Source: Synergistota bacterium (GTDB taxonomy: Bacteria; Synergistota; GBS-1). Taken from it: a stretch of 64,000 bases of DNA. The position numbers and the translations under genes are program-made. The notes beneath the pieces were generated by a model. That model was not told the DNA's origin. It did not search any database and was given only the letters and a program-made list of their open reading frames with translations. Every line of letters begins with the position of its first letter. The first letter of the stretch is position 1. Shown piece by piece: positions 14,659 through 46,048 of the stretch. Where the stretch lies: assembly GCA_025060595.1 (NCBI GenBank), contig JANXBX010000001.1:20459-84458 (forward strand), given 5' to 3'.

Positions 14659-14683
14659 AGCCTATGAGAAGGGAGGGATATCC

Positions 14684-15521: not shown

Positions 15522-15539
15522 TCTATAATTGCACCTCCT

Positions 15540-17755: not shown

Positions 17756-17769
17756 ACTTTATAGTCACC

Positions 17770-18291: not shown

Positions 18292-18293
18292 CT

Positions 18294-18737: not shown

Positions 18738-18747
18738 TCAACCCTCC

Positions 18748-19083: not shown

Positions 19084-19085
19084 TA

Positions 19086-20645: not shown

Positions 20646-20651
20646 CTTCCA

Positions 20652-21750: not shown

Positions 21751-21753
21751 TTT

Positions 21754-21996: not shown

Positions 21997-21999
21997 CTT

Positions 22000-22356
22000 T
22001 CACCACTTCCCTTCTTTCTCCGCAAGCTTATCAACTACGGCCCTCTTAGGCATGACACCACTTCTATGAGCCGCCCTTGCTATAGCATGAGCTCCCGTAG
22101 GGTTAGTTAAAAGCAAAGCTATAAGCGCAAGTATAGCGTGAATAGCAAGAACACAAAATCTTGCTTCACCTGTACTAATCCATTTACTAAATCCGTAGAT
22201 TATTACCCCAAGAGAGGTAAATATAGAACCAAAAGTTGTAGCTTTAGTAGCACCATGCAAACGAGTGTAAACATCCGGAAACCTATAAAGAGCTATAGCA
22301 CCGAGACCATTAAAAGTAATCCCTACTATCAAACACAGTATAATGAGCCCCGACAT
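22000..22356 (-). CDS. MnhG-like subunit, Mbh subunit C-like
   Basis: 118 aa, 3 TM plus a charged C-terminal tail. Confidence 0.6.
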   Translation of the reverse strand: MSGLIILCLIVGITFNGLGAIALYRFPDVYTRLHGATKATTFGSIFTSLGVIIYGFSKWISTGEARFCVLAIHAILALIALLLTNPTGAHAIARAAHRSGVMPKRAVVDKLAEKEGKW

Positions 22357-22358
22357 AT

Positions 22359-22664
22359 CTAAATCCCCCTTTCTAAGTAACGAGCTATAAACAAAGTCGC
22401 TATGAAAGAAAGAAGAGCATAAACTATAGCTATATCCACGTAAATAACAGAGTCAAAAGCAGCTCCAAAAACTATCATTGCAGCAACAACATAAGTATTA
22501 ACGGTATCTAAACCTACAACCCTATCTGGAACAGTAGGTCCCAATGCAGATCTCCCTATAGCCAAGAAACTAAATATAACTAAAAACACACCTGTTATCA
22601 TAAACCATACGCTCAAATCCATCATTCTATTATCCTCCTTGCCCATTGGGGAAAATCTCCACAA
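22359..22664 (-). CDS. MnhF-like subunit, Mbh subunit B-like
   Basis: 101 aa, 3 TM. Confidence 0.6.
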   Translation of the reverse strand: MWRFSPMGKEDNRMMDLSVWFMITGVFLVIFSFLAIGRSALGPTVPDRVVGLDTVNTYVVAAMIVFGAAFDSVIYVDIAIVYALLSFIATLFIARYLERGI

Positions 22665-23128
22665 ATCTCTTGAGGTTCTGGTTCAAGATTTTTAACGTCG
22701 ATCCAGTGAACATAAAGTTCGTTTTCATTCTCATCCACATCTACACTTAAGGTACCAGGTGTTAACGTTATAGAATTAGCTAAAAAAGTTAAAGCCATGT
22801 CTTTTCTAAGCCCTGTTTTGATCTTAACTATACCCGGATTTATATTGCCTGTAAAAACTCTAATTGCCACATCTATATTAGCCTTAGCCATAGCTATAAA
22901 GAATGGGACAAATAAATAGTACAAAAAGAGCACCCACCTATAAGGGTTTAAAAGAGTAGCAGGAATATATTCTCCAAAAACCTTACCTCCAGCCAAACCA
23001 GCCACAAACGCAACTGGGATACCGATCACGAGTTCACCCAAACTCCACAAACCAATATCTCCACTCCCAATCGTTAGAACCAGATAAAGTAGATAAGATA
23101 AAATTGTGACGGCTATATAAGATCCCAC
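22622..23128 (-). CDS. MnhE-like subunit, Mbh subunit A-like
   Basis: 168 aa, first gene of the 14-gene block. GTG start with GGAGGG Shine-Dalgarno. Confidence 0.6.
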   Translation of the reverse strand: MGSYIAVTILSYLLYLVLTIGSGDIGLWSLGELVIGIPVAFVAGLAGGKVFGEYIPATLLNPYRWVLFLYYLFVPFFIAMAKANIDVAIRVFTGNINPGIVKIKTGLRKDMALTFLANSITLTPGTLSVDVDENENELYVHWIDVKNLEPEPQEICGDFPQWARRIIE

Positions 23129-24232: not shown

Positions 24233-24946
24233 ATGATTGAAGAAAAAAAGATTAATTTCAAAAAAAGGTTCATCGATCTTAAAGAGGAAGAAGAACAAGC
24301 ATTAATGGAAGCAAGTAGCTTTTTTGATAAGAGAGTTTCAGAATTAAGCGAAAAGCTCTTTTCCCACCTATCTCGCCTAGGAGAAAAAAGCCATTTTAAG
24401 CTGAAAGAAGACTGGAGGGAAATAATAAATGAGTATCTTAAAAGTCTCTTTAAAGATCCTGTAGACGATGCTTACCTTGATAAGAGAAGCTCCCTTGGAG
24501 AAAAAATTTATAATAAGGGTATAGCAATAGAAGGCTTCATAGGCATTTATAACCCAATAATTAAAGCCATACTTGAAACAGCTTTTGAAGTATATAGAGA
24601 AGAAAAAGAAAAAATAATTCTCCTAATAGCTTCTATCTTTAAGAGAATTAACCTTGATATCCAATTAATCGTAGAAGAATATATGAATTTGATAGGCAAG
24701 GGAATAGCTGAAGCAAGCGAGGATCTTAAAAATATAGTTAAAACCATATATAAGATCGCAGGACAGACAAAGTTAATAGCCTTAAACGCAGCAATTGAGG
24801 CTGCTCGAGCAGGAACATCAGGAAAAACCTTCACCGTTGTTGCCCAGGAGATAAGTAAATTAGCAGCTTCCTCAGCAAAGGCAGCTGAAGAGGCTGACGA
24901 AATGATAAGAAAGCACTTAGAGAGCTTTGTTAAAGGTTGGGAGTAA
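24233..24946 (+). CDS. Globin-coupled-sensor-like protein: sensor-globin domain fused to only the conserved tip segment of an MCP signalling domain
   Basis: The C-terminus [51 protein letters not shown] is the highly conserved MCP core. The N-terminal ~160 aa resembles the HemAT-type sensor globin (..[13 protein letters not shown]..). Only 237 aa in total. Confidence 0.55.
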
Positions 24947-24952: not shown

Positions 24953-25672
24953 ATGGATGCAATTCAGATATCAGAAGAAAAACCTCCCAGTCTTATACTT
25001 GCAATATGTTTGGTAACCCTAGGAATACTTTCAGAAATAATTTTGATACCAGTGTTTTCAACACTAACATCAGATTTACCAATCTTTTTAGAGAAGAAAG
25101 AGTTAGTCAAATCAATTAACTTAATTACCTTATCGCTATTTATAAAAATAGCAGCAGGAATTCTACAACTAATACTTCTATACTCTTGGAGTAAAGCATT
25201 AGAAAGAAACATTAAAAACACTATGTTAGTTTTCCAATTAGTATACGAAAATATTAATGAAGACAAAAGAGGAACTCTATCCCTCTTTTTATTTAGGCTT
25301 TCTCAAATGAAAATAAACTCTTGGGCTTTTCCCATTTATGCGTTTCTTTATGCTTTTGGAGCTATAATTCCTGTATTAAATGTAATGAATATACCAGCAT
25401 TAATATTCTTAGCCATATACTTACACTCGTTATTTTCCGTGAGTTCTGACCTTTCAAAGTTTAAAAATATGATCTACTTCCATCTCTTAGGTGGCATACC
25501 ATTCCCAATACCAGAAATAAGAGAAAGAAACGTAATAGTAGTTGCTATACTTTCCATCATAACACTCAATATATATTGGCTTTACCTCCTGATAAAGCTC
25601 ACCAAAGAAATATCAAATTTCATAAACGCCGATATGAAAATAAGAAAACACTTAACAGAGACTTTAAAATAA
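24953..25672 (+). CDS. Hypothetical polytopic membrane protein (about 6 TM)
   Basis: 239 aa, begins 6 nt after the previous stop; no recognisable family. Confidence 0.45.
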   Translation: MDAIQISEEKPPSLILAICLVTLGILSEIILIPVFSTLTSDLPIFLEKKELVKSINLITLSLFIKIAAGILQLILLYSWSKALERNIKNTMLVFQLVYENINEDKRGTLSLFLFRLSQMKINSWAFPIYAFLYAFGAIIPVLNVMNIPALIFLAIYLHSLFSVSSDLSKFKNMIYFHLLGGIPFPIPEIRERNVIVVAILSIITLNIYWLYLLIKLTKEISNFINADMKIRKHLTETLK

Positions 25673-25706
25673 AGAGGGGATCACCTTTTAAAAGGTGATC
25701 CCCTCT
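25673..25706. terminator. Bidirectional intrinsic terminator between convergent genes
   Basis: Perfect 13-bp inverted repeat AGAGGGGATCACC-TTTTAAAA-GGTGATCCCCTCT, flanked by T/A runs on both strands. Confidence 0.7.
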
Positions 25707-25725
25707 TTAGCTTACCGCGTTATTT

Positions 25726-26658
25726 CTAGACAGTTTCCCCACACATTTTAAGAACGAAGTTCCATTCCCTATCTACATGCTTCTGTATTTCATCAATAAG
25801 ATGTCTTTTTTCAGGAACAAATAGGTGACGGAACCTTCCCTGAATTTTCAGGAATTCTTCGATAGGTTTTTTCTCCTTAGGTTTGTAAGAAAGCTTCCAC
25901 TCGTCATTGATAATTTCAAACACAGGCCAGAAGCAAGTGTCAACAGCAAGCTTACAGAGTTTAATCATATCTGCAGGATCTACCCTCCAGAACCTTACGC
26001 AAGGAGCAAGGACGTTTATAAAGGCAGGTCCCGGTGTCTCGATAGCTTTCCTTACCTTATTAACCAGATCTAGAGGGTTATGTAATGTAGTTTGAGCAAC
26101 ATAAGGTATATGATGACCAGCAACTATAGCAGTCAGATCCTTTCTCCACTGTGTTTTACCAGGTATAACTTTTCCAACAGGTGCAGTAGTTGTATCAGCA
26201 CACATCGGAGTTCCTCCGGATCTCTGAGCCCCTGTATTCATATAACCCTCATTGTTATAGCATATGTATAGGAAATCATGTCCTCTCTCAAGGGCTCCAG
26301 AAAGCGACTGAAGTCCTATATCGTAGGTTCCACCATCACCGCCAAAAGCCACAAACTTCACATCTTTGCTTATCTTACCCTTCTTTTTTAGAGCCCTATA
26401 GGCAGCTTCTACTCCAGATATCGTAGCAGCAGCATTCTCGAAAGCGCTATGAATCCAGGAAACTCTCCAAGCAGTATAAGGGTAAATAGTTGTAGAAACC
26501 TCAAGACAACCCGTAGCACAAGAAACCACAACAGGCTCATTAATAGCGAGCATGGTTAGTCTGGCCGTTAAAGCTGCTCCACAACCAGGACACAATCTAT
26601 GTCCATAAACGAACTTTTCTTCCCTTTTAAGAAGGTCTCTAACAGTTAAAGGCATCAA
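25726..26658 (-). CDS. porB: Pyruvate/2-oxoacid:ferredoxin oxidoreductase beta subunit (TPP-binding)
   Basis: Motifs CPGCG.., GDGG.YDIGLQ (TPP-binding) and CYNNEGYMNTG. Confidence 0.9.
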   Translation of the reverse strand: MMPLTVRDLLKREEKFVYGHRLCPGCGAALTARLTMLAINEPVVVSCATGCLEVSTTIYPYTAWRVSWIHSAFENAAATISGVEAAYRALKKKGKISKDVKFVAFGGDGGTYDIGLQSLSGALERGHDFLYICYNNEGYMNTGAQRSGGTPMCADTTTAPVGKVIPGKTQWRKDLTAIVAGHHIPYVAQTTLHNPLDLVNKVRKAIETPGPAFINVLAPCVRFWRVDPADMIKLCKLAVDTCFWPVFEIINDEWKLSYKPKEKKPIEEFLKIQGRFRHLFVPEKRHLIDEIQKHVDREWNFVLKMCGETV

Positions 26659-26669
26659 AGCACACCTCC

Positions 26670-27836
26670 TTATTCCCTAACCCCGAGATACTTCTCTTCC
26701 TTGGATATATTACCATTCATCAAATCCTCATAAACGCTTCTTATAAGAGATGGAGGAGTATCTCTTCCTCCAAGACCATAGATATAAGATGCTAAAACAG
26801 GTTTCGCCTTTACATCATAAAGTGCAGACTTTATTTCACAGAAGAGAGGAGCTTCTGCACCTACAGAGTAAGCCCTATCTAAAACAGCCACAGCCTTCTT
26901 ACCTTCTAGAAGACGAGATATTTCTTCTTTGGGGAACGGACGATAAAGTCTTATCTTAAGTAGACCAACCTTTTTACCTTGAGCCCTTAATTCCTTAACA
27001 ACATGCTTTGTAGTTCCAGCTGTGGAAGACATAACAACTATTACATATTCAGCATCATCCATGTAAAACCCCTCAACTTTAGGATATTTTCTACCTGTAA
27101 TTTTAGATAGCTCTTCAGCTACCTCCTCGTAAGCCTTCGGAACATGCTTCATTGCCTCAAACTGTTGACGTTTATGCTCAAAGTAGTAATCAAAAAGATC
27201 AAGAGCTCCATAAGTCTTCGGATTATCAGTATCAAGTAAAGGATTCCAAGGCTTAAACTCCCCTATAAACTTCTTAACCACCTCATCATCTAATATCTCA
27301 ACAGGTTCAACTCCATGAGAGGTTATAAACCCGTCTTGGCAAACCATAACAGGTAAACGAACATCTTCACGCTCTGCAAGTCTTATAGCCAAGATGGTAT
27401 GATCGTAAACCTCTTGAGCTGTTTCACTATAGATCTGGATCCAACCAGAATCCCTCTCCGCCATTGTATCAGCATGATCACAATGTATGTTTATAGGAGC
27501 AGAAAGAGCTCTATTAACCACACCCATAACAATCGGTAGCCTTAAGCCAGATGCTATATAAACTACCTCGTGCATCAAAGCCAAACCCTGAGCAGATGTA
27601 GCAGTCATAACCCTTGCACCTGCAGCAGAGGCTCCAACGCAAGCCGACATAGCAGAGTGCTCACTCTCAGCAGTGACAAGCTCGGTATCTACAAGACCGT
27701 CGGCAACAAATTCAGCAAAGGTCATCATTATCTCCGTCTGAGGAGTTATGGGATAAGCAGCAACCACATCAGGGTTAATTTGTCTCATAGCCTCAGCAAA
27801 GGCTGCATTACCAGTCAAAGGTATTTTCTTTTTCAT
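26670..27836 (-). CDS. porA: Pyruvate/2-oxoacid:ferredoxin oxidoreductase alpha subunit
   Basis: 388 aa; N-terminus LTGNAAFAEAMRQINPDVVAAYPITPQTEIM is typical of PorA. Confidence 0.9.
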   Translation of the reverse strand: MKKKIPLTGNAAFAEAMRQINPDVVAAYPITPQTEIMMTFAEFVADGLVDTELVTAESEHSAMSACVGASAAGARVMTATSAQGLALMHEVVYIASGLRLPIVMGVVNRALSAPINIHCDHADTMAERDSGWIQIYSETAQEVYDHTILAIRLAEREDVRLPVMVCQDGFITSHGVEPVEILDDEVVKKFIGEFKPWNPLLDTDNPKTYGALDLFDYYFEHKRQQFEAMKHVPKAYEEVAEELSKITGRKYPKVEGFYMDDAEYVIVVMSSTAGTTKHVVKELRAQGKKVGLLKIRLYRPFPKEEISRLLEGKKAVAVLDRAYSVGAEAPLFCEIKSALYDVKAKPVLASYIYGLGGRDTPPSLIRSVYEDLMNGNISKEEKYLGVRE

Positions 27837-28135
27837 TTCTTCTCACCTTCCTCAAAAAGTGACTCCGGTTTCATCTCTATAGCACTTTTTGGACAAATAG
27901 CAGCACAGACTCCACAACCTTTACAATAATCATAATTTATACCACTTACCTTATTGTCCCTTACAAGAATAGAGCCATCCGGACAGTGAAGCCAACACAT
28001 AAAACAATTTATGCATTTATCCTTATTCCATACAGGTCTTATACTTCTCCACGTCCCAGTTTTATACTTAATGCTGTTTCCCGCTTCAAGTATTACACCC
28101 CCAGGCGGGAGTTCCTTCCAACCCTTAAGACTCAT
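27833..28135 (-). CDS. porD: POR delta subunit (2x[4Fe-4S] ferredoxin)
   Basis: Motifs CINCFMCWLHCP and CKGCGVCAAICP. Confidence 0.85.
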   Translation of the reverse strand: MSLKGWKELPPGGVILEAGNSIKYKTGTWRSIRPVWNKDKCINCFMCWLHCPDGSILVRDNKVSGINYDYCKGCGVCAAICPKSAIEMKPESLFEEGEKK

Positions 28136-28713
28136 TCTCCCTGCACCTCCTCATAGCCACGGCGCATGGCCCTTAGATTCGCTTCCACTCTCTCAGGAGT
28201 AAGTCTCCCCTCAAACTTACTTCTAAAATGTTCCTCAAAGCTTCTAAGAGGAACTTCCCCTATTATCTTAGCAAGAGCCCCAAGTATCGGCGTATTAGGG
28301 AAATTAACTTTCATTTCCTCAAGAGCAATCTTAGTAGCATCAACAACATAAACTTTCTGAGACTTCAAGCCTAATTTTCTCTTCACATCAGCAGGAGTCA
28401 ATGTGGTATTTACAAGCAGTACGCCGTCTTCTTTTAAACCCTCAGCTACATTAACAGCTGTAAGCAATGTAGGATCAATTACCACAACAATATCAGGATT
28501 CTCTACCTGACAGTGAAGTAAAATTTCCACCTTACTTAACCTATCAAAGGCTTTCATAGGAGCTCCCGACCTCTCCGCGCCATACTCAGGAAAGGCCTGA
28601 ATGTGATATCCCTGCTCAAAAAACACCTCAGCTAAAATCTGGGCCCCTGTTTTAGCCCCTTGGCCTCCTCTACCATGCCAACGTACTTCAATGAGCCTCT
28701 CCAAGACCTTCAC
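28132..28713 (-). CDS. porG: POR gamma subunit
   Basis: 193 aa with the N-terminal GRGGQGAKTGAQILAE motif. Confidence 0.85.
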   Translation of the reverse strand: MKVLERLIEVRWHGRGGQGAKTGAQILAEVFFEQGYHIQAFPEYGAERSGAPMKAFDRLSKVEILLHCQVENPDIVVVIDPTLLTAVNVAEGLKEDGVLLVNTTLTPADVKRKLGLKSQKVYVVDATKIALEEMKVNFPNTPILGALAKIIGEVPLRSFEEHFRSKFEGRLTPERVEANLRAMRRGYEEVQGE

Positions 28714-28776: not shown

Positions 28777-29409
28777 CTAAACCTCTTCGACAACAAAATC
28801 TATCAAATGTTTGGTTTCATTAAGTAAAACCAAGGTGAAACCTCTTTCCCTTCTATACTCAACGATACTATAAGAAGCCGTGTCAAAATGAAACTTCCAG
28901 AAATAAGGTTTCTTAACCTCAAACATAGCTGCAAAGAGAGGTTTCAAAACTGCCCTATGAGTAACAATAGCTATCGTTTCCCTCTCATGCTTCTCAAGAA
29001 TCTTTAACAAGGCAGAAAAAGCTCTTTCTTTAACGTCATCTACCTTCTCCGCCCCAGGAATATTCAGATCCTCTGGAACTGTAATCCAGATTTTCCATTC
29101 GCGTGGATACTCTTTTTCTATCTCCGTTTTAACCCTGCCCTCCCAAAAGCTAAGAGAGATGTTATTAAAACCTTCCTCCACTATGGGAGTTAAATTATGA
29201 GGTTCTCCTATTATCTCTGCGGTTTTTAATGCCCTTAGAAGAGGGCTCGTATAAATCGCATTAATCTTAAATTTCTTTATCTCATCTCTTAGAAGTTCAG
29301 CCTGTTTTATTCCATTTTTGTTTAAAGGAAAATCTATTCTTCCCCTAAAAAGACCTACTCTATTACCCTCACACTCACCATGTCTCACAAAAATAAGGGT
29401 GGTTTTCAC
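28777..29409 (-). CDS. Histidine phosphatase superfamily (phosphoglycerate-mutase-like) protein
   Basis: N-terminus LIFVRHGECEGN (RHG catalytic motif); 210 aa. Confidence 0.75.
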   Translation of the reverse strand: MKTTLIFVRHGECEGNRVGLFRGRIDFPLNKNGIKQAELLRDEIKKFKINAIYTSPLLRALKTAEIIGEPHNLTPIVEEGFNNISLSFWEGRVKTEIEKEYPREWKIWITVPEDLNIPGAEKVDDVKERAFSALLKILEKHERETIAIVTHRAVLKPLFAAMFEVKKPYFWKFHFDTASYSIVEYRRERGFTLVLLNETKHLIDFVVEEV

Positions 29410-29452: not shown

Positions 29453-30754
29453 TCAGTTTTTTCTTAAAACAGGTAGCAATTTATGACCTTCTGGAATAAT
29501 ATAAGTAGAGGGGTTAGGGCCAAGCAAACTCTTAGCTTCCTCTATTCCTTTCCTCAAGCTTCTTACCGGTTCCATACCCATTTTTTTAACCTCATCTTCA
29601 GGCAAATTAGAGATAAGATAAACCTTAAACTTTTCCGCTATCAGCGCCATATGAAAAGCCATATGCCCACCTATAGTATAATTTTCTCTTAAAGCCATCT
29701 CTCTTTCCTTACTATCTCGATAATTAACAAGGGTTTGATAAAAATCCTCATTACCTATGCCCTCTCTACATTCAGATAAAAGTATTATGACCCCTCCCTC
29801 TTTAGTAGCTTTTTCTGCGTTATAAAGTGTTTTATAAGTTTGATAAAGATTTATATCTTCAGGATAACCGCCACAAGAGATTATCGTAAGTTCAGCAAGC
29901 TCTTCTATTTCAACACTACAATACTCATTATAGAGTCTTGCGCCTTCCTCATGAGCAGCCACATAATCTCCTGCAACAACATGAGCTATCTTTCTTTCTG
30001 GATTCACAATAGTGTTAATAAGAAAAGCCGGCTTTATAAAGCTTGCTACCTCAAGAGCATCTTCGCTTACTCTGTTACCACGCATTACACCTGAACAAAC
30101 TGATGGATCAAGACCTTTACCAGGTTCAGGATGAAGAGCAAGCCCGTGATTTTTCATTATAGAGTCCCTTGAGGAAACACCAGGCATTATCGATTTTTTC
30201 CCTCCACCAAAACCATATAAGAAGTGATGAACTATTCCACCAGTTAAAATGACCTTGTCAGCTTCAAGAAGTCTCCTGTTTATCTCCACAGGAGTTCCAT
30301 AGCTTGTCTTTCCAAGATAAACAACTTCCTTTTTGTTTCGAGCACGATGGTTATATATTCTTCCTTTAAGAAATGCGTAAGCTTCCTTCCCGAGAATTTT
30401 TTCAAACTCTTCCTCAGTATGATCCCGATGATCACCATTAGCACAAATAGCAAATATATCTTCATCTATAACACCAGCGTTCTTAAGTTCCTTCAAAATA
30501 AACGGCATAAAAACATGATGTCTAACCCAAAGTCTCGTCATATCGCTAAAGAGAATGCATACCTTTTCTCCCTTCTTAACTATTTCCCTTAAAGGAGCAG
30601 AGTTTATAGGTTTAGTAAGGGCCTCTATAACTGGTTTTTCTTCGCTCTGATGTTTTGGCATTTCCTTGGGCTCTAGGATCCCTATTATATTATCCAACTC
30701 ATAATCGAACTCTATAAAACCATTTCCAAATGCCAAGCCAAAAGGTTTTTTCAT
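29453..30754 (-). CDS. larA: Lactate racemase LarA family protein (Ni-pincer-nucleotide-dependent; DUF2088 plus LarA C-terminal domain)
   Basis: 433 aa. The architecture and its position at the end of an lct-like operon match LarA/LctF. Confidence 0.7.
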   Translation of the reverse strand: MKKPFGLAFGNGFIEFDYELDNIIGILEPKEMPKHQSEEKPVIEALTKPINSAPLREIVKKGEKVCILFSDMTRLWVRHHVFMPFILKELKNAGVIDEDIFAICANGDHRDHTEEEFEKILGKEAYAFLKGRIYNHRARNKKEVVYLGKTSYGTPVEINRRLLEADKVILTGGIVHHFLYGFGGGKKSIMPGVSSRDSIMKNHGLALHPEPGKGLDPSVCSGVMRGNRVSEDALEVASFIKPAFLINTIVNPERKIAHVVAGDYVAAHEEGARLYNEYCSVEIEELAELTIISCGGYPEDINLYQTYKTLYNAEKATKEGGVIILLSECREGIGNEDFYQTLVNYRDSKEREMALRENYTIGGHMAFHMALIAEKFKVYLISNLPEDEVKKMGMEPVRSLRKGIEEAKSLLGPNPSTYIIPEGHKLLPVLRKN

Positions 30755-30773
30755 TTTTTTTTCGCCTCGCTTT

Positions 30774-32192
30774 TTAAAATATCTTACCAGGATTCATTAT
30801 ATTATTAGGATCAAAAACTCTTTTCATCTTCTTCATCAATTCTACTTCTTTTCTTTTGGTTTCATTTAAGACCCTTTTCTTAAGAAGACCTATCCCATGC
30901 TCGCCGCTTACAGCTCCACCAAGCTCTGCTGCTTTTAAAGCTAACTTATCAAGAATCTCCTCAGAGATATATCTCCATTCCTCCAAAGATACATGCGATG
31001 GTTTTAAAGGAGCTGGGTGGAGGTTACCATCAGCTACATGAGCTGCAACTGGAATTTTAACTTTATACTCATTTGACATCTCACTCAAAAAGGACATCAT
31101 ATCAGGAATACTTGATGTAGGAAGAACCACATCCCCTGTGGAAACATAAGGATCAACTGCCTTAAGAGCCTCAAGCCATGTTCTTCTAACCTTCCAAATG
31201 CTTTCAGAGGCGCTTCTATTATCAGCTACAAAAACATCAATTGCTCCTTTAGACAATAATGCTTTTCCCACTTTTTCATAAATATTTTCCAATTCCGTTC
31301 TATTTTTTCCTTCCAGCTGAACTATTAAGAAAGCCTCAGCCTCGCCTTGAAACGGAAAACTCGTGTTGTTATACTTAGCACTAAGCTCAATAGAAACCTT
31401 ATCTATAAACTCTAAAGCTGATGGAAGTTCTTTACTTTCCATTAGGATCAAAGGCACGCTATCTACAGCATCCTCTACCTTCTTAAAAGGAATCAATAAA
31501 TCTACCGTTTTGCCCGGTAATGGTATCAAGTTAAGGTAAATTTTAGAAAACACCGCTAAGGTCCCTTCAGAACCTACTAACAGCTTCACAAAGTTATAAC
31601 CGCTTGAATCCTTTCTTCTTTTACCTCCAAATATTACAACCTCCCCATTAGGAAATACAGCTTCTATTCCTAAAACATGGTGTCCCGTACTTCCATATTT
31701 TATTACCTTACTCCCTCCCGCATTTGTCGCCACATTTCCTCCTATAAAACTTGTCTCAACGCTCATAGGATAACCTGCATAATATAATCCCTCCTCCATA
31801 ACTCTCCTACACAAGTCGTTTGTTACAACCCCTGGTTCAACCACAGCAACAAGGTTCTTCTTATCCACCTCTATAACTCTATTCATCCTTTCCAAGGAAA
31901 GAACTATTCCACCAAATAGAGGGATGCAACCTCCTGAAAGTCCACTTCCCGCGCCTCTTGGAGTAACAGGTATCTTTTCCTCATTTGCCAATTTCATTAT
32001 CTCTGAAATCTGCTCAACCTTTTCAGGTTTAACAACTACATCAGGCATACGAGCATAGTATTTGAAAGCCGATTCATCATGAGAGTAGGCCTCAAGAGCA
32101 TCTTTATCTTCGTAAATAACCCCTCTTTCTCCAACTATCCTTATCAACTCCCTAACAAAGGAGGGAGTAACCTTCCCAAATTCCTCAATCAT
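30774..32192 (-). CDS. FAD-binding (PCMH-type) D-lactate/glycolate oxidase family dehydrogenase (GlcD-like), LctD-like
   Basis: FAD_binding_4 region PRGAGSGLSGG, and GGSISGEHGIG-like segment GGAVSGEHGIGLLK. Confidence 0.85.
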   Translation of the reverse strand: MIEEFGKVTPSFVRELIRIVGERGVIYEDKDALEAYSHDESAFKYYARMPDVVVKPEKVEQISEIMKLANEEKIPVTPRGAGSGLSGGCIPLFGGIVLSLERMNRVIEVDKKNLVAVVEPGVVTNDLCRRVMEEGLYYAGYPMSVETSFIGGNVATNAGGSKVIKYGSTGHHVLGIEAVFPNGEVVIFGGKRRKDSSGYNFVKLLVGSEGTLAVFSKIYLNLIPLPGKTVDLLIPFKKVEDAVDSVPLILMESKELPSALEFIDKVSIELSAKYNNTSFPFQGEAEAFLIVQLEGKNRTELENIYEKVGKALLSKGAIDVFVADNRSASESIWKVRRTWLEALKAVDPYVSTGDVVLPTSSIPDMMSFLSEMSNEYKVKIPVAAHVADGNLHPAPLKPSHVSLEEWRYISEEILDKLALKAAELGGAVSGEHGIGLLKKRVLNETKRKEVELMKKMKRVFDPNNIMNPGKIF

Positions 32193-32193
32193 A

Positions 32194-33210
32194 CTATCTT
32201 CCCTCCTTATAACTTTTAAGCCTCTCTATTAAAAGAGGAACCACTTCAAACAAGTCTCCTACTATTCCAAAATCACAAACCTTAAATATGTTAGCCTCAG
32301 GATCATTATTTATAGCAACGATCGTCTCAGAGGAGGACATACCAGCAATATGTTGAACAGCACCAGAGATCCCTATAGCCATATAAAGCCTTGGGCTAAC
32401 CGTCTTCCCACTTAAACCTACCTGATGAGGATAGGATACCCATCCCATATCAACAGCAGATCTCGAAGCTCCTAAAGCCCCTCCCAAGAGCCTAGCAAGC
32501 TCACGAACCATCCCAAAGTTCTTCTCGCCTTTAAGTCCTTTACCACCAGATACAACTACATCAGCCTCCTGAATGGGAGCCTCCAACGAATTATCTTTAA
32601 TAAATCTAACAAATCTTACTTTAGACTCATAAAGGCTTTCAGGATACTCCTTTAATATAATTTCCCCAGAACGAGATGTATTCCTTGACAGTGGTTTCCT
32701 CGATCTAGGTCGAACGGTGGCCATTTGCGGTCTATGATTGGGAGTTTTAATAGTAGCCATTACATTACCCCCAATAGCTGGTCTCGTTTGAAGAAGAAGC
32801 CCCGTCTCAGGTTCTATATCGAGTCCAGTACAATCAGCTGTAAGGCCAGTCCTTATTCTTGCAGCAAGTATAGGCATAACAGTCCTGCCAACTGTAGTTG
32901 CCGAAGCAATAAATATCTCTGGGTTAAACTCTTTTACCAGTTCCTCAAGAACACGGGCATAAGCATCAGGCTTAAAACGCTCAAGGAGAGGATGATCCAC
33001 AAGGTAAACTTTATCAGCCCCTCTATATATTAACTCCCTTACTTTATCCTTTAGCCCACAACCTATAATAACACTTGAAAGCTTAACACCAAGCTTGTCT
33101 GCAAGCTCTCTACCCCAATTTAAAAGCTCATAAGAAACAGAGCTTATTTCGCCCTCCCTTTGCTCTCCAAGAGTCCATACCTCCCTAAGTATTCCAGATT
33201 CGTTCATCAA
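32194..33210 (-). CDS. etfA: Electron transfer flavoprotein alpha subunit
   Basis: C-terminal FAD-binding region AIGISGAVQHIAGM. Confidence 0.9.
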   Translation of the reverse strand: MMNESGILREVWTLGEQREGEISSVSYELLNWGRELADKLGVKLSSVIIGCGLKDKVRELIYRGADKVYLVDHPLLERFKPDAYARVLEELVKEFNPEIFIASATTVGRTVMPILAARIRTGLTADCTGLDIEPETGLLLQTRPAIGGNVMATIKTPNHRPQMATVRPRSRKPLSRNTSRSGEIILKEYPESLYESKVRFVRFIKDNSLEAPIQEADVVVSGGKGLKGEKNFGMVRELARLLGGALGASRSAVDMGWVSYPHQVGLSGKTVSPRLYMAIGISGAVQHIAGMSSSETIVAINNDPEANIFKVCDFGIVGDLFEVVPLLIERLKSYKEGR

Positions 33211-33218
33211 AATCCCTC

Positions 33219-34013
33219 CTATAATATTCCCTTACTTTCAAGAAAAACTATAAGCTCACTAACTGCCTTATAGGGATCCTTGCCAGAAATGATTTTCCCA
33301 CCTCTTGATAACTTAGGATAAAATATTTTAACAACTCTTGTAGGAGAACCCTCTAATCCTATTAATTTCCTATCCAGGTTCAGCTTTTCCACTGTTAGAA
33401 TCGGAATCTGAATCTCCTTAGCCCTAAGCTTTCCAGAAAGATTAGGTAATCTCGGTTCATTTATTTCTTTTACTACACTTAACAATGCAGGTAAATCCGT
33501 TTCAACTACCTCATACCCTCCTTCAACTACCCTCCATACCCTTATATATCCCCTTTCGAGCTTTTCTATTTTACTTACATAAGTTAGAGCTGGAATTCCA
33601 AGAAAAGAGGCAACACTTGGTCCAACCTGACCAGTTTCCCCATCTGTAGCTCGTTCGCCACAAAATATAAGATCGAATCCTCCTAGATACTTTATGGCTT
33701 CTGAGAGAGTATAAGCAGTAGCCCATGTATCAGATCCTGCAAGAAGCTTATCGGAAATAAGATAACCTTCATCACAACCCATAGATATAGCATCTTTAAT
33801 AGCATCAGCTGCCATAAGTGGTCCCATAGATATCACGGTAATCTTGGCATCTCCACCCATACGCTCTTTAACTCGAACGGCTTCCTCAACAGCATACATA
33901 TCTAATGGGTTAAGCTCCGCCTCCATTTCTGTTCTTATCATGGTTCCAGTCTTCTCATCCATCTTTACCTTATCCGTCGCAGGAACCTGTTTCACCAATA
34001 CACAAATTTTCAA
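33219..34013 (-). CDS. etfB: Electron transfer flavoprotein beta subunit
   Basis: N-terminus MKICVLVKQVPATD, typical of EtfB. Confidence 0.9.
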   Translation of the reverse strand: MKICVLVKQVPATDKVKMDEKTGTMIRTEMEAELNPLDMYAVEEAVRVKERMGGDAKITVISMGPLMAADAIKDAISMGCDEGYLISDKLLAGSDTWATAYTLSEAIKYLGGFDLIFCGERATDGETGQVGPSVASFLGIPALTYVSKIEKLERGYIRVWRVVEGGYEVVETDLPALLSVVKEINEPRLPNLSGKLRAKEIQIPILTVEKLNLDRKLIGLEGSPTRVVKIFYPKLSRGGKIISGKDPYKAVSELIVFLESKGIL

Positions 34014-34675
34014 GGTTCTCCCCTCCCAATCCCCTTAATTCTCTTAAGCACATTTTCTATATGCTCCCTCATAAGCTCTTCCACTTCCTCAGCCTTTTTC
34101 TGACTAACGAGACTTATGATCTCTTCGTGATCTTTAAGAGAGCTCTCCATAACCCCAGGAACATAAAGAGACTTAAGCCTATAAGCATCAATATAAGACA
34201 TCATACTCTCAAGCACCTTTAAAAGCCTATCATTTCCGGAAAAGGCCCAGATAAACTTATGGAAACTCGCATCTAAATCAGCATAAGCTATAACATCTTT
34301 TCTCTCACATGCTAATTTCATCTCTTTCAGTTTAAGATTTAACTTCTCTATCTCAGTGATGCCACATCTACTCGTAAATAGCCTTACTGCAAGTCCCTCT
34401 AAAGCGCTCCTTATTTGAAAGACATCCTCTATATCCTTCAAGGAAATTTCAGCCACAAAGGCACCCTGATTGGGAAGAAGTTCTACCAATCCTTCCGCGG
34501 CAAGACGATGAATAGCTTCTCTCACCGGTGTTCTACTTGTGCCTAACTGAGAAGCAAGCTGAGACTCTACCAATCTACTACCTCCTTTAAGATCCCCTTT
34601 TAAGATAGCCTCCTTAAGAATCTCATAAACCTTATGATTCAGCAGATCCCGTCTTTCAACCTTCCGTAGAGATAT
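34010..34675 (-). CDS. GntR/FadR-family transcriptional regulator (LctA-like), with FCD ligand-binding domain
   Basis: HTH LVESQLASQLGTSRTPVREAIHRL. The in-frame conserved N-terminus (RKVERRDLLNHKVYEILKEAILKGDLKGG) extends 34 codons upstream of the ORF-track TTG (34573). A near-cognate ATA at 34673-34675 has a GGGAGGTGA Shine-Dalgarno 6 nt upstream. Confidence 0.75.
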   Translation of the reverse strand: MSLRKVERRDLLNHKVYEILKEAILKGDLKGGSRLVESQLASQLGTSRTPVREAIHRLAAEGLVELLPNQGAFVAEISLKDIEDVFQIRSALEGLAVRLFTSRCGITEIEKLNLKLKEMKLACERKDVIAYADLDASFHKFIWAFSGNDRLLKVLESMMSYIDAYRLKSLYVPGVMESSLKDHEEIISLVSQKKAEEVEELMREHIENVLKRIKGIGRGEP

Positions 34676-34690
34676 TTACCATCACCTCCC

Positions 34691-34718
34691 TGTGGTATAC
34701 TGTATACAGTATACCACA
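34691..34718. promoter_or_regulatory. 28-bp perfect palindrome TGTGGTATACTGTATACAGTATACCACA, candidate GntR/FadR-type operator of the lct-like operon
   Basis: Exact reverse-complement symmetry, TGGTATAC...GTATACCA, immediately upstream of the regulator's Shine-Dalgarno. Confidence 0.6.
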
Positions 34719-34738: not shown

Positions 34739-35860
34739 TCACCTTAAAAGATGTATATTTCCTATAGCAACGTTTTTCAAGCCCATTTTTATAGCCACAT
34801 CATAACATCTATAAGCTAGCTCTTTAGACGTTAATGGCAAATCACTCATATAAAAATGGGGGTAAAAAGCAAGCAACCTGTAAGGGATATTCTTATCTAT
34901 TTGGGCTATAAATTTAGCTATCCCCTCTACCTCTCTCTCATCTATATAACCAGGGATGAGCAATGTGCTTGCTATAAGGAGAGGAACTTGAGGTCTTCTA
35001 TCTATATACTGAGCTATAAAAGCAAAATTATCGAGTATCCTTTCATTAGAAATTCCTGTTAATGCAACGTGAAGGTTTTTATCCCAGGCTTTTAGGTCAA
35101 TTTTTATACAACCTCCAGAAATCAAGGAAAGCTCAATCACCCTCTTTAGAAGCTCTCTATTCATTAAGCCATTGGTCTCCCAACATATTCTTAAAATTCT
35201 TCCCTTAGTGTTCTCTAGAGTTTTTTCAGAAACTTTTATAGCAAAGGGAAGTTGAGGGGATGGATCTCCACCGAAAAAGCAAATACATGAAACTTTGAAG
35301 TTTACAGAATCAACTAGCTCTTCCACTTTTCTAGTCTCAGATCTAAGGCTAAGCTCCTTAAATTGCCAGTTCTGACAGAAAAGGCAATTCAAGCTACAGG
35401 CGTGGAAGAATACAGCTAAGTTATAATAACCATATTCAGGACCATTTTTATAAGCGTACTGAGGATAACCACAACCGGTTCCTGCAGGACATACCCAATC
35501 AGCCACGCAATTAGTAGGAAGAGGATCTAAATACCACGAAACCTTAGCTTCCTCAGATAATGGACCTATCAACCTCCCACCAATATTCCTCCTCAATCCA
35601 CAAAATCCAACCTCACCCTCAGGGACTTGACACTCATTAGCACATAAATTACACTTTAACCCTAAAGGATCATGCGGAATAGGAAATGGAAGGTGGTATT
35701 TCTCTCTACTTTCCCTATGAGCTTCCTGAACAAAGGGAAAGGCCTCTTCTGGAAAATTTCTGATACAATTCAAACAAACTTTTAAAAACTTTGAAACTAT
35801 GGGAAGCTCTTTTCTACATATCTGACAGATCATTTCAAAATCCCAAAAACATTTTATCAT
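34739..35860 (-). CDS. Radical SAM protein, PflX-like (homologue of pyruvate formate-lyase activating enzymes)
   Basis: CxxxCxxC cluster CSLNCLFCQNW plus an N-terminal Cys-rich region. Confidence 0.65.
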   Translation of the reverse strand: MIKCFWDFEMICQICRKELPIVSKFLKVCLNCIRNFPEEAFPFVQEAHRESREKYHLPFPIPHDPLGLKCNLCANECQVPEGEVGFCGLRRNIGGRLIGPLSEEAKVSWYLDPLPTNCVADWVCPAGTGCGYPQYAYKNGPEYGYYNLAVFFHACSLNCLFCQNWQFKELSLRSETRKVEELVDSVNFKVSCICFFGGDPSPQLPFAIKVSEKTLENTKGRILRICWETNGLMNRELLKRVIELSLISGGCIKIDLKAWDKNLHVALTGISNERILDNFAFIAQYIDRRPQVPLLIASTLLIPGYIDEREVEGIAKFIAQIDKNIPYRLLAFYPHFYMSDLPLTSKELAYRCYDVAIKMGLKNVAIGNIHLLR

Positions 35861-35866
35861 AAAGAG

Positions 35867-36817
35867 GTGAAAGACTTGAAGCTCTGTAAAATTTGTAAGA
35901 AAAAGTCTGTAGTATTTTTAAAGTCACATAGAATAGCCCTTTGCGAGGATCATCTTAAGAGCTTTGTAGAAAAAAGAGTGATTGAAAGCATAAAATCTTA
36001 CAAAATGATAAATAATGGAGAAAAGGTTCTTATAGCCGTGTCAGGAGGAAAAGATAGTCTAAGTTTATGGCAGATATTAACAAACATCGGATATGAAGCT
36101 GATGGTATGTTTATCGATCTTGGAATACCAGGATTCTCCCAGGAATCCTGGAAAAAGTGCGAAAATTTATCTAATAAACTCTCTAGAAAGCTTTTTAAAG
36201 TAAATTTAGAGGAAATCCTAGGTATGAACTTGCTTAGTATATCGAAGTTAGAGAGAAGAGTACCATGCGCATTCTGCGGCATGATAAAAAGATATATTAT
36301 GAATAACTTTGCTTTGCAAAACGGCTATAAAGTTATAGCTACGGGACATCACCTTAATGATGAGTGTTCGATTCTCCTTGGAAACATACTTAATTGGCAA
36401 GTGGAATACCTAAAGAGACAGAATCCAACCCTTGAAGAATCTAATGGCTTTGTTAGAAAGATAAAACCGCTTGTCTTATGCAGTGAAGAAGAAATAGAAA
36501 GTTACGCTAAAATTATGAACATAGATCATGTCGGTAAAGGCTGTCCGCTTTCTGAGGGAGCCACATCACACTTTTATAAAAGTATTATAAACCAAATAGA
36601 AGAAAGAATGCCCGGAACTAAGCTACGCTTTTACAAGGGTTTCTTAAAAATCAAAAATGACATTTTCGGAGAAGAAAAACCAGCTCAACTTAAGCCCTGC
36701 ATTAAGTGCGGATACCCCACAACAACTGAAGTGTGTTCTTTCTGTAGACTTCTTGATAGAATAAAAGCTAAATCTCAAATTTCGAAAGAAAATCTTCAAA
36801 AGAGCGAGGAATCCTAA
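35867..36817 (+). CDS. PP-loop ATP pyrophosphatase of the TtuA/TtcA/NcsA tRNA-thiolation family
   Basis: PP-loop VSGGKDS, an N-terminal CxxC..CxxH zinc finger (CKICKKK...CEDH) and a C-terminal CxxC..CxxC (CIKCGY...CSFC). Confidence 0.7.
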   Translation: MKDLKLCKICKKKSVVFLKSHRIALCEDHLKSFVEKRVIESIKSYKMINNGEKVLIAVSGGKDSLSLWQILTNIGYEADGMFIDLGIPGFSQESWKKCENLSNKLSRKLFKVNLEEILGMNLLSISKLERRVPCAFCGMIKRYIMNNFALQNGYKVIATGHHLNDECSILLGNILNWQVEYLKRQNPTLEESNGFVRKIKPLVLCSEEEIESYAKIMNIDHVGKGCPLSEGATSHFYKSIINQIEERMPGTKLRFYKGFLKIKNDIFGEEKPAQLKPCIKCGYPTTTEVCSFCRLLDRIKAKSQISKENLQKSEES

Positions 36818-41145: not shown

Positions 41146-42192
41146 TTATGGTTTCGGCCAAACTGATCTAAACTTCTCCTTGAAACCATTATAAGATTCC
41201 AAAACCTTAGCGGTGAATGGATCTTTCTTCGCCTGTTCTGCATAATACTTATCAGCCTCTGCTATAAAGGCATCTTCTATCTCCTTAGGTAACTGAAGAA
41301 CCTGAATTCCAGCCTTACGGAACTTTTCCAAGGCCTCCAGGTCTGCCTTTACAGCCCTAGCATAGTAAGCAAAGGCTTCCTCGCTCCAAGCAGCTTCTAT
41401 AATGTTCTGCAAATCTTTAGGAAGTTCTTCCCATTTCTTCTTATTGAAGAAGAACGGATTCCATTCATAAGGATGCCTTACTGGAGAGAGATAGATGTAC
41501 TTTCCAGCCTCCTGAAGACCCATAGTCCAGTTAACAGCAGGACTCGCTACTTCATAAGCATCGATAACACCACGATGCATGGCCTCGAAAACCTCACCAA
41601 CAGGCATTAACGTACAGGCAGCTCCTAACCTATCTAAGATAGCCGCACCATCTCCAGCCGAGCGAATCCTCATTCCCTTAAGATCCGCAACAGTCTTAAG
41701 AGGTTTGTTAGTAGTAAGGAATATCTCTGGCGGTGCCATCTGACCAGCGCTTCTAAGTATCTGAACGTTATAATCCTTTACCATTTCTAATATAAGCTCA
41801 TGTCCTCCTCCTTCGAGAACCCAAAGTAAGGCTTCAGCTGGAGACATACCAGCGGGTTTAGCCGTAAATATAGGAGCTGCAGGCCACCTATCTCTATAGT
41901 ACATATAACAGGTATCAGCAAAGTCTAGAACCCCCCTATGAACTCCATCTAGTTCTTTAGTAGCTGGATAAATAGCTCCCGCTGGATTAACCTTAAGAAC
42001 CAACCTCCCACCACTTGCAGCCTCAGCTCTCTGACAAGCCCGTACTAAAGACTCATAGAAAACGTTTCCTGACGGCATACGAGATTGACCTGTAAAGGTA
42101 TAGACCTTCTGCTGCTGTGCATAAGCTAACCCGACAAAAAGAGCAACTATTAGGCAAACAACTACTATTAACCACCATACCCTTTTCTTCAT
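41146..42192 (-). CDS. TRAP transporter substrate-binding protein, DctP family (second system)
   Basis: 348 aa with a signal peptide and SBP fold. Confidence 0.8.
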   Translation of the reverse strand: MKKRVWWLIVVVCLIVALFVGLAYAQQQKVYTFTGQSRMPSGNVFYESLVRACQRAEAASGGRLVLKVNPAGAIYPATKELDGVHRGVLDFADTCYMYYRDRWPAAPIFTAKPAGMSPAEALLWVLEGGGHELILEMVKDYNVQILRSAGQMAPPEIFLTTNKPLKTVADLKGMRIRSAGDGAAILDRLGAACTLMPVGEVFEAMHRGVIDAYEVASPAVNWTMGLQEAGKYIYLSPVRHPYEWNPFFFNKKKWEELPKDLQNIIEAAWSEEAFAYYARAVKADLEALEKFRKAGIQVLQLPKEIEDAFIAEADKYYAEQAKKDPFTAKVLESYNGFKEKFRSVWPKP

Positions 42193-42221
42193 GACTCACC
42201 TACCTCCTCTCTTTAAAATTA

Positions 42222-46046: not shown

Positions 46047-46048
46047 CT

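Follow-up and report, generated by a model that had tools for sequence, protein, structure and literature searches.

A string of minus-strand genes in an uncultured Synergistota bacterium has the appearance of a lactate-utilisation operon that is missing its permease. What do these genes encode, how might they be controlled, and how would their substrate enter the cell? The first gene of the string, within the 64-kb stretch of DNA analysed here (the window), encodes a GntR + FCD regulator, an analogue of LctA (34010 to ~34675; Pfam GntR 4.4e-19, FCD 1.5e-25). It is followed by the genes for a putatively bifurcating, LctB-like EtfB (33219-34013; Pfam ETF, best PDB matches CarD and LctB), an LctC-like EtfA of 338 aa (32194-33210; Pfam ETF and ETF_alpha), an LctD-like FAD-dependent D-lactate dehydrogenase (LDH) of the VAO/GlcD fold (30774-32192; Pfam FAD_binding_4 and FAD-oxidase_C) and a LarA-superfamily nickel-pincer 2-hydroxyacid racemase of an LDH-linked clade (29453-30754; Pfam Lar_N and LarA_C). 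These domains and their order bear out the original prediction of a GntR/EtfB/EtfA/FAD-LDH/LarA operon arranged as in A. woodii, minus the permease. The stop codon of the regulator is overlapped by 4 nt by etfB, and the two genes are predicted to be translationally coupled through this overlap.

The string continues with a histidine-phosphatase-family protein (28777-29409; Pfam His_Phos_1) and porCDAB, which encodes a four-subunit 2-oxoacid (pyruvate):ferredoxin oxidoreductase (25726-28713; Pfam and NCBIfam). The phosphatase gene is kept between the racemase and por genes in five Synergistota lineages among those examined, and the por genes are syntenic with the lct genes in orthologous loci. 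A promoter-like TTGAAA-17-TATAAT lies ahead of the por genes at 28773-28745. Just past the porB stop at 25726, between convergent genes, a perfect GC-rich palindrome of 40 bp (25670-25709) is a probable bidirectional terminator closing the lct-por string. In our view the locus likely represents an Lct-type operon for the use of lactate, a new member of a familiar kind.

Among solved structures in the PDB, A. woodii LctD (7QH2_C, 1e-101) is the best match to the LDH. For both Etf subunits, the scores with bifurcating Etfs are roughly double those with canonical ones: EtfA with 251-308 versus at most 163 bits, EtfB with 172-200 versus at most 87 bits. EtfB carries DGETGQVGP in place of the b-FAD motif DGDTAQVGP (PMC9232219) and has the invariant glycine of bifurcating Etfs (PMC9232219; PMC12630350). 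By sequence, EtfAB is thus of the bifurcating type, which supports this part of the original prediction. EtfA, however, aligns to residues 72-393 of LctC (7QH2_A) and 66-392 of CarE and is without the N-terminal [4Fe-4S] ferredoxin domain, which is essential in A. woodii, where its removal abolishes confurcation (PMC9232219). It could be argued from this that the Etf is a plain, non-confurcating carrier passing the electrons of lactate to another acceptor, like that of the lct cluster of Fusobacterium nucleatum, and some lct clusters do contain canonical Etfs (PMC12630350). Such a role is unlikely: the b-FAD motif, the invariant glycine and the scores of both subunits speak against it, the operon has no gene for Bcd or another acceptor, and bifurcating Etfs that have no ferredoxin domain exist, e.g. 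4KPU and 5OL2 (PMC9232219).

The racemase bears on the question of the substrate. Its H109, H177, K187 and H203 are invariant and match the LarA residues responsible for catalysis and NPN binding. Among NCBIfam models and characterised enzymes it scores best against LarAH10 and the malate racemase Mar2, and it misses the cut-offs of both LarAH10 (490 bits, cut-off 540) and LarA (318 bits, cut-off 460). Synergistota are typically amino-acid fermenters, and the operon might oxidise other 2-hydroxyacids, for example 2-hydroxybutyrate, 2-hydroxyisovalerate or phenyllactate derived from amino acids, with a racemase for hydrophobic 2-hydroxyacids and with the neighbouring 'POR' handling the resulting 2-oxoacids. 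A characterised LarAH10 member does take hydrophobic 2-hydroxyacids and not lactate (PMC11770544), PorC falls into the pyruvate/2-ketoisovalerate subfamily of NCBIfam, and the clade of a nearby TRAP binding protein includes keto-acid binders (7UG8). Against this stand the missed LarAH10 cut-off, the closeness of the LDH to a lactate enzyme, the Lactate_perm gene inside the sister operons, and the company kept by racemase relatives in Bacillota and other groups. An FAD-LDH gene adjoins 16 of the 19 metagenomic relatives (45-52% identity), often together with LctP, and three further relatives (48-54% identity) also flank one. These observations make a substrate other than lactate rather unlikely. 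The enzyme is probably a lactate racemase, a role that rests on genomic context. The label 'LarA' given to it originally is at odds with the curated LarA cut-off and the better LarAH10 and Mar2 scores.

The control region of the operon contains a perfect 28-bp palindrome, TGTGGTATACTGTATACAGTATACCACA, composed of three GTATAC hexamers with 7-bp spacing. It lies at 34691-34718, exactly where it had been reported, and is abutted on the minus strand by GGGAGG (34690-34685), which includes the Shine-Dalgarno GGAGG of the regulator (34685-34689); all orthologous loci have GGAGG or GGGGG there. The longest palindrome in 200 shuffles is 24 bp, and perfect palindromes of 28 bp or more number just three in the window, this one among them. 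The search for further half-sites that had been proposed covered the window: the full palindrome, even at 3 mismatches, and its central 14-mer each occur there only once, and the bare 8-mer half-site has three other copies, two of them within ORFs.

The core of the palindrome, TATACTGTATACA, stands unchanged ahead of the orthologous regulator gene in six Synergistota lineages, in which the intergenic DNA flanking it has diverged. Within it, a predicted extended -10 element, TGgTATACT (34708-34716, minus strand), is conserved as TGGTATACT in five of the six. At least 50 exact copies of a 20-bp core, GTATACTGTATACAGTATAC, occur in unrelated phyla, compared with about 0.5 expected by our own calculation (596 Gb x 0.25^20). 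GntR/FCD paralogues are found at 20 of these 50 or more loci, in about 16 cases immediately adjacent, and these paralogues sit beside unrelated catabolic genes. In 10 unrelated loci, versus 2.1 expected, a TTGACA-like -35 box lies 16-18 nt upstream of the first TATACT. These observations suggest that the palindrome is most likely the operator of a GntR/FCD repressor. Since the 20-mer accompanies many unrelated GntR/FCD genes across phyla, it would represent a generic class of GntR/FCD operators, the specificity of which would reside in the effector domain and not in the DNA site. For the same reason the half-site is no signal specific to lactate. As the palindrome overlaps a -10-like element, the regulator would most naturally control the whole operon, its own gene included.

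The palindrome could in principle act as RNA instead, either terminating or processing the transcript of the radical-SAM gene, whose stop codon lies 20 nt before it, or masking the ribosome-binding site of the regulator, the Shine-Dalgarno of which follows directly. It would form a 12-bp hairpin in a region with an MFE of -30.9 kcal/mol (z = -4.95). Nevertheless, a U-tract after the palindrome is absent on both strands, the region matches no Rfam family, and right-arm substitutions in the orthologous loci L010 and L012 are without compensation in the left arm. L010 retains the core despite a divergent upstream gene and a consensus TTGACT-17-TATAAT promoter just upstream, and in unrelated phyla the identical 20-mer stands beside GntR/FCD genes and as far from -35 boxes as a -10 element would. 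An RNA function is therefore highly improbable, and the palindrome is treated below as an operator.

The protein predicted to bind this operator belongs, as a GntR + FCD protein in Pfam, to the FadR subfamily. Of the autoregulated FadR-subfamily switch originally proposed, the subfamily is thereby confirmed, and autoregulation is what the phylogenetic footprint and its -10 overlap most naturally suggest. The regulator reaches no NCBIfam equivalog, nor any curated model of a lactate regulator (for LldR, 62 bits where the cut-off is 311), and its nearest solved relatives are without a known lactate link. NanR is its second-best NCBIfam match (4.2e-24), and it remains below the cut-offs of both the GntR and NanR families. 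The operators of B. subtilis GntR and E. coli NanR, the latter being (GGTATA)x3, consist of GTATAC- or GGTATA-like hexamers that overlap the promoter. All three regulators are FCD-type GntR proteins. The operator in the window differs from the other two in that its three hexamers are self-complementary, spaced by 7 bp and joined in one perfect palindrome.

The start codon of the regulator is unusual. There is no in-frame ATG, GTG or TTG between the stop at 34676-34678 and a TTG at 34573, use of which would truncate the wHTH by its first helix; the NCBI annotation has a CTG start at 34642. If the start codon were indeed gone, the regulator would be unmade, or truncated and blind to DNA, leaving the operon permanently on and the palindrome as a relic. 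This is very unlikely. The ORF is uninterrupted, and the stretch ISLRKVER, which precedes any canonical start, is conserved in its amino acids with synonymous changes. The related lineages L006, with ATT at the start position, and L003, with ATA there and TTG two codons later, share the situation, and L002, a separate assembly of run SRR15826899, is identical; the missing canonical start is thus neither a recent lesion nor an assembly error. Furthermore, among the orthologous loci the palindrome is most perfect in this very lineage. Translation of the regulator likely begins at an AUA at 34675, 9 nt past GGAGG.

Searched by tblastn with a sister operon's LctP, the 64-kb window gave no match, in agreement with the original prediction. 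Four sister lineages (L010, L011, L070 and L072) have LctP between the LDH and the racemase, in the slot of A. woodii lctE (order: bioRxiv 10.1101/2020.01.23.904417), and an NJ tree places together the lineages of the window's subclade that have no permease, five in all. As the sister lineages keep the gene, the missing permease is probably a loss specific to one subclade and not a feature of the system. Genes for LctP and larBCE could lie elsewhere in the genome, beyond the window.

The transporters named in the original prediction, two TRAP systems (5499-8415 and 41146-44065) and an NhaC-family protein (52261-53871), are all present, along with TrkH/TrkA (44604-47407), which it had left unmentioned. 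The second TRAP system (dctQ, dctM and dctP, minus strand; Pfam DctP, DctM and DctQ) is the best candidate for lactate uptake in place of LctP. Its DctP (41146-42192), 6.4 kb upstream of the operon, has as its best PDB match the lactate-binding TTHA0766 of Thermus thermophilus (2ZZV; 3.6e-38, ~320 aligned residues), with which it shares the region of the carboxylate-binding Arg. Over 159 residues it is 90.6% identical to the fragment of a syntenic gene in L006, a lineage without the permease; the permease-bearing L010 has a different TRAP at this position. The similarity to TTHA0766 is only moderate, however, and the neighbouring genes point equally to 2-oxoacids and lactate: since ilvD and aminotransferase genes adjoin it, the system may serve 2-oxoacid uptake instead.

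It is then possible to describe how the operon might work. Lactate would probably be taken up by a carrier other than LctP, with the TRAP system as the best candidate. The nickel-pincer racemase would interconvert L- and D-lactate, and the complex of the LctD-like dehydrogenase with EtfAB would oxidise the latter, with reduced ferredoxin oxidised at the same time to drive the uphill reduction of NAD+ (electron confurcation). The porCDAB enzyme would then convert pyruvate to acetyl-CoA and regenerate the reduced ferredoxin. The repressor encoded by the first gene is expected to bind the triple-GTATAC palindrome over its own extended -10, thereby shutting off the entire translationally coupled operon, its own gene included. 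Binding of a carboxylate effector, most likely lactate, to the FCD domain would release it.

The closest characterised system is lctABCDEF of A. woodii (LctA, regulator; LctBC, EtfBA; LctD, LDH; LctE, permease; LctF, racemase; 7QH2, the Ldh-EtfAB structure). The two operons share the order regulator-EtfB-EtfA-LDH-...-racemase, a GntR-family first gene and a bifurcating-type Etf with the b-FAD motif. The operon in the window differs in having no permease gene, no [4Fe-4S] ferredoxin domain in EtfA, a racemase that by NCBIfam scores belongs to another LarA clade, and a fusion to the His-phosphatase and porCDAB genes. Its regulator gene also overlaps etfB, which leaves the DNA ahead of the regulator gene as the sole intergenic control region; A. 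woodii LctA reportedly binds between lctA and lctB.

The sister operons of L010/L011 (GCA_053987915.1, GCA_053994735.1), L070 and L072 are orthologous to that in the window (identities of 65% for the regulator, 70-84% for EtfB/EtfA/LDH and 63-71% for the racemase). L010/L011 share its operator core, downstream His-phosphatase and por genes. Besides the LctP that the sister operons carry, L010 has a Yip1-domain membrane protein between LDH and racemase. Its operator is preceded by a distinct consensus promoter, and its regulator begins with a canonical GTG. The lct clusters of Fusobacterium nucleatum and Anaerostipes likewise pair an FAD D-LDH with EtfAB, are lactate-induced and in some species include a racemase; they contain Bcd and an EtfB without the invariant glycine, whereas the operon in the window has no Bcd and keeps the glycine (PMC12630350; PMC7702098).

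The genes from the regulator to porCDAB are tightly packed on a single strand, the minus strand. A regulator with GntR and FCD domains (34010 to about 34675) is followed by EtfB (33219-34013), whose gene overlaps the regulator's stop by 4 nt, then by EtfA (32194-33210), a FAD_binding_4/FAD-oxidase_C dehydrogenase (LDH, 30774-32192), a Lar_N/LarA_C protein (the racemase, 29453-30754), a histidine-phosphatase-family protein (28777-29409) and porCDAB (25726-28713). The order regulator-EtfB-EtfA-FAD-LDH on one strand is the Lct-type arrangement, for which the lctABCDEF gene order of A. woodii is the reference (bioRxiv 10.1101/2020.01.23.904417). The original prediction of an Lct-like operon, with the LarA-type gene at its end, is borne out in gene content, order and strand, and its interpretation is found to be largely right. 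Horizontal transfer of the locus was considered and rejected, as the composition profile is uniform and contains no island; the G+C content of the window is 39%.

The sequence confirms that a perfect 28-bp palindrome, TGTGGTATACTGTATACAGTATACCACA, is located directly at the Shine-Dalgarno of the regulator and fills exactly positions 34691-34718, with GGGAGG abutting it on the coding (minus) strand. The palindrome consists of three self-complementary GTATAC hexamers with 7-bp spacing, and it exceeds the longest palindrome found in any of 200 shuffles (maximum 24 bp). The search for further half-sites that accompanied the original prediction gives a divided result. The window contains no second copy of the full 28-mer or the central 14-mer when up to 3 mismatches are allowed, or of GTATACNGTATAC with up to 2 allowed. 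The bare 8-mer half-site TGGTATAC has three further copies (12658, 62062 and 62576), of which two are inside ORFs and all three are taken as chance occurrences. Three Logan contigs from one related lineage (L003, L004 and L005, from three runs) all end inside the palindrome, starting at the same 8-mer, and the perfect palindrome seemingly breaks short-read assemblies.

The orthologues of the regulator form six close groups at 60-81% identity, after which the identity drops to 46%, and their contigs carry the same operon. An alignment of the upstream regions shows the block TATACTGTATACA unchanged in every lineage, amid intergenic DNA that has diverged. The segment TGGTATACT, which fits an extended -10 element (TGnTATAAT), is kept in five of the lineages. 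The sixth lineage (L010/L011) has no co-directional gene upstream, and a consensus TTGACT-17-TATAAT lies a few bases upstream, so that the conserved core is positioned just downstream of the -10. The region of the palindrome also folds well as RNA, and no intrinsic terminator is predicted at it. Recognition of the DNA by a protein is nevertheless favoured over an RNA hairpin, because the core is conserved, because of the promoter layout in L010/L011, and because the left arm contains no changes that would compensate those in the right arm (GTCCAC in the related lineage L012, ATCTAC in L010). The palindrome thus has the attributes of an autoregulatory operator: it is upstream of the regulator, it is conserved in the orthologues, and it lies over promoter elements.

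The same operator is not restricted to Synergistota. When one representative genome of each GTDB species, in a set without the MAG of the window, is searched for exact copies of the 20-bp core GTATACTGTATACAGTATAC, it is found in at least 50 loci (L014-L063), all from species representatives of many phyla, including Chloroflexota, Bacteroidota, Ignavibacteria, Proteobacteria, Bacillota, Patescibacteria and others. The number of copies expected by chance is estimated as about 0.5 (596 Gb x 0.25^20). A GntR/FCD protein, 30-35% identical to the regulator of the window, is encoded in 20 of these loci, and its gene immediately adjoins the palindrome in about 16 of the 20. In 10 loci, the palindrome's first TATACT is preceded at a distance of 16-18 nt by a hexamer that agrees with TTGACA in at least 5 of 6 positions, compared with 2.1 loci predicted from shuffled flanks. 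The genes near the core copies are mixed and include those for an aminotransferase, a DAO-type oxidoreductase, a DUF4147/MOFRL (glycerate-kinase-type) protein, a CoA-transferase, solute-binding proteins, a fumarase/aspartase-type lyase and a GHMP kinase, as well as an EtfB-led operon. The operator is not present in the Bacillota-type lactate clusters L064-L066. Judged from these sequences, the predicted 20-bp core is a real and widely used GntR/FCD operator, placed over the -10 and serving unrelated catabolic genes. As it stands beside such unrelated genes, it represents a generic class and not a lactate signature.

In one Thermodesulfobacteriota MAG, the 20-mer occurs in two contigs. In one of them it has TTGACA-17 upstream and stands ahead of the EtfB-led operon (L060, 1494-1742); in the other (L023), the genes behind it include those for a LemA-family protein and a DUF362/Fe-S protein. 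The two copies may constitute a small regulon. More broadly, GTATACTGTATACAGTATAC may define a cross-phylum class in which a large GntR/FCD subgroup acts on an embedded -10, and by analogy with NanR such proteins would possibly bind the triple GTATAC as several dimers. Literature searches on LctA/GntR and on the operator strings returned nothing usable; the natural points of comparison are the site bound by LctA in A. woodii and the GntR operator of B. subtilis.

The regulator was predicted to belong to the FadR subfamily, and both of the domains that this implies are found, an N-terminal GntR winged helix-turn-helix (wHTH, PF00392, 4.4e-19) and a C-terminal FCD domain (PF07729, 1.5e-25). Its scores do not reach the cut-offs of the curated NCBIfam families for lactate and 2-hydroxyacid regulators, namely LldR (61.9 against 311), GlcC (52.3 against 301) and PdhR (47.1 against 330). 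The start of its reading frame is unusual. A TAA stop (34676-34678) is followed directly by ATA (34675-34673), and the frame contains no ATG, GTG or TTG ahead of the TTG at 34573, a start at which would cut away the first helix of the wHTH. An out-of-frame ATG at 34682 opens an ORF of only 8 codons, and the NCBI annotation places the start at a CTG (34642). The ATA is located 9 nt past GGAGG, and the residues from it onward, ISLRKVER, are kept in the orthologues with synonymous codon changes. At the start position, the related lineage L006 has ATT, with no canonical alternative behind the Shine-Dalgarno. L003 reads ATA there and has a TTG two codons further on, and the start is GTG in L009, L010 and L012. 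An assembly error as the source of this frame was rejected, since the identical sequence is found in a separate assembly (run SRR15826899) and the arrangement recurs in two related lineages. The most economical reading of these sequences is a near-cognate AUA/AUU start, which in the Lct regulators of this subclade may be a built-in way to keep the autorepressor scarce.

The LDH has A. woodii LctD as its best PDB match (7QH2_C, 1e-101, 344 bits, residues 26-471). For both EtfA and EtfB, the scores against bifurcating Etfs (CarED, 4KPU, 7KOE, 5OL2 and LctCB) are roughly double those against canonical ones. The b-FAD motif DGDTAQVGP contains a Gly that separates bifurcating from canonical Etfs (PMC9232219; PMC12630350), and the EtfB motif DGETGQVGP matches it at 7 of 9 positions with the Gly retained. 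By motif and scores, the Etf is predicted to be of the bifurcating type. EtfA, however, differs from its A. woodii counterpart LctC. It has 338 residues, its alignment to LctC begins only at LctC residue 72, and the N-terminal [4Fe-4S] ferredoxin domain (C(x)17CxxCxxC) is not present; as only 8 nt separate etfB from etfA, there is no room for one. Deletion of this domain of EtfA in A. woodii abolishes confurcation (PMC9232219). Since bifurcating Etfs that have no ferredoxin domain exist (4KPU and 5OL2), its absence is a difference from A. woodii and not a disqualification.

The operon was also predicted to have no lactate permease, and this holds true: the gap between the LDH and racemase genes is 19 nt with no permease gene in it, and no LctP homologue is found in the 64-kb window. 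In the sister operons L010/L011/L070 and L072, LctP is located exactly between the LDH and the racemase, as is lctE in A. woodii, and in L010 it is accompanied by a Yip1-domain gene. In a neighbour-joining tree of the racemases, the window groups with four other permease-less lineages; LctP is present both in the sister group and in the outgroups. Loss of the permease in the subclade of the window is therefore the parsimonious reading of the tree.

The nearest TRAP system (41146-44065) might provide an alternative route for lactate. The best solved relative of its DctP (41146-42192) is the lactate-binding TTHA0766 of Thermus (3.6e-38). This DctP is 90.6% identical over 159 residues to a syntenic gene fragment in the permease-less L006, while the identity of the lct regulators is 69%; the permease-bearing L010 has a different TRAP type at the syntenic place. 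Given the small sample and the position of the TRAP genes among ilvD and two aminotransferase genes, the sequence association is suggestive only. The permease-less operon may depend on such a TTHA0766-like TRAP, with high-affinity uptake feeding a confurcating LDH devoid of the ferredoxin domain. The window also encodes an NhaC-family carrier (52261-53871), and this family includes the malate/lactate antiporter MleN.

The racemase scores below the curated LarA cut-off (NCBIfam NF033504, 317.6 against 460 bits). Its best NCBIfam match is LarAH10, a family of hydrophobic 2-hydroxyacid racemases (NF052525, 489.9 bits, under the cut-off of 540), and its best match among structures is the malate racemase Mar2. 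The characterised LarAH10 does not racemise lactate (PMC11770544). The residues H109, H177, K187 and H203 align to His108, His174, Lys184 and His200 of LarA (2YJG, L. plantarum numbering) and are invariant in 15 members of the clade. In LarA, His108 and His174 are catalytic, Lys184 tethers the NPN cofactor and His200 is a Ni ligand. No LarB, LarC or LarE gene was found among the scanned window ORFs of at least 120 residues.

It is the genomic context of its relatives that settles the substrate toward lactate. Three relatives at 48-54% identity, one of them from the cultured Dethiobacter alkaliphilus, adjoin a FAD-LDH and Lactate_perm, and in two of these cases a GntR/FCD gene is found there as well. 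A metagenome scan with an alignment as the query yielded 80 loci (a single-protein query yielded none), among which 16 of 19 relatives at 45-52% identity flank a FAD-LDH, often followed by LctP; for most relatives at 44% identity or less, this flanking gene is missing. These sequence contexts speak in favour of a distinct LDH-linked clade, with lactate as the predicted substrate.

The histidine phosphatase (28777-29409) is PspA/CobC-like but falls under every NCBIfam cut-off. In five of the examined Synergistota lineages, its gene is retained with the racemase on one side and porC on the other; it is not present in the Bacillota-type lactate clusters. A promoter-like TTGAAA-17-TATAAT precedes porC. 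Just past porB, between it and a convergent DUF4234-like ORF, a perfect 40-bp GC-rich palindrome, TAAAGAGGGGATCACCTTTTAAAAGGTGATCCCCTCTTTA (25670-25709), is probably a bidirectional terminator. No Rfam family is found across the whole window. The por genes are closely followed by one that encodes a protoglobin-MCP signalling-domain protein (a globin-coupled sensor, 24233-24946).

Two divergent genes, one of the radical-SAM type and the other a TtuA-like PP-loop gene, are located just upstream of the lct operon (34739-36817). The former (34739-35860, minus strand) has weak AmmeMemoRadiSam/activase similarity, under the cut-offs, and in the window, as in L006, L009 and L012, it comes immediately before the regulator. 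The TtuA-like gene is adjacent in L006, as in the window, and about 4 kb further upstream in L009 and L012; in L010, a PP-loop gene is present and a metallo-beta-lactamase replaces the radical SAM.

A membrane-bound [NiFe] hydrogenase/Mrp-antiporter-like (Mbh/Mrp-type) cluster occupies 15120-23128. It contains a Complex1_49kDa/NiFeSe large subunit, 20- and 30-kDa subunits, NADHdh, Proton_antipo_M, MnhB and MNHE, and is consistent with ferredoxin-dependent H2 production and a ferredoxin-based fermentative lifestyle. At its end is a perfect 32-bp palindrome, GTGCAACCCAAGGCTATAGCCTTGGGTTGCAC (15014-15045), within two overlapping ORFs that have no Pfam matches (14662-15123, minus; 14705-15133, plus).

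By combining these observations, it is possible to propose how the operon might function. Most likely, the GntR/FCD autorepressor would occupy the triple-GTATAC operator that overlies the extended -10 in the lct promoter, and a carboxylate effector, presumably lactate, would release it. The racemase would then supply D-lactate to the confurcating LDH-EtfAB, and porCDAB would oxidise the pyruvate and give back reduced ferredoxin. The compact lct-por arrangement makes this ferredoxin cycle between pyruvate and lactate oxidation explicit. That all three elements, a cross-phylum triple-GTATAC class, an autorepressor with a near-cognate start and a confurcating LDH supplied by a TRAP system, hold together is a tentative and rather doubtful proposal. 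If the cross-phylum class is true, regulons could be read straight from uncultured genomes. As a practical gain, a 20-bp operator common to many GntR/FCD regulators in several phyla could seed regulon prediction in uncultured bacteria.

The well-studied LDH/Etf module for lactate oxidation is thereby extended to thermophilic Synergistota. This kind of system is already known and its current understanding is not overturned. What is added is of moderate and specialist significance: the permease was probably lost in one subclade, EtfA lacks a ferredoxin domain, the racemase belongs to a distinct LDH-linked clade, the operator is of a generic kind, and the regulator has an odd start codon. Two components regarded as integral in A. 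woodii, the ferredoxin domain of EtfA and a permease encoded in the operon, appear to be dispensable or replaceable in nature. Compared with the lctABCDEF operon of A. woodii, that of the window is without these two components, whereas the order regulator-EtfB-EtfA-LDH, the LctD-homologous LDH and the bifurcating-type EtfB are the same in both.
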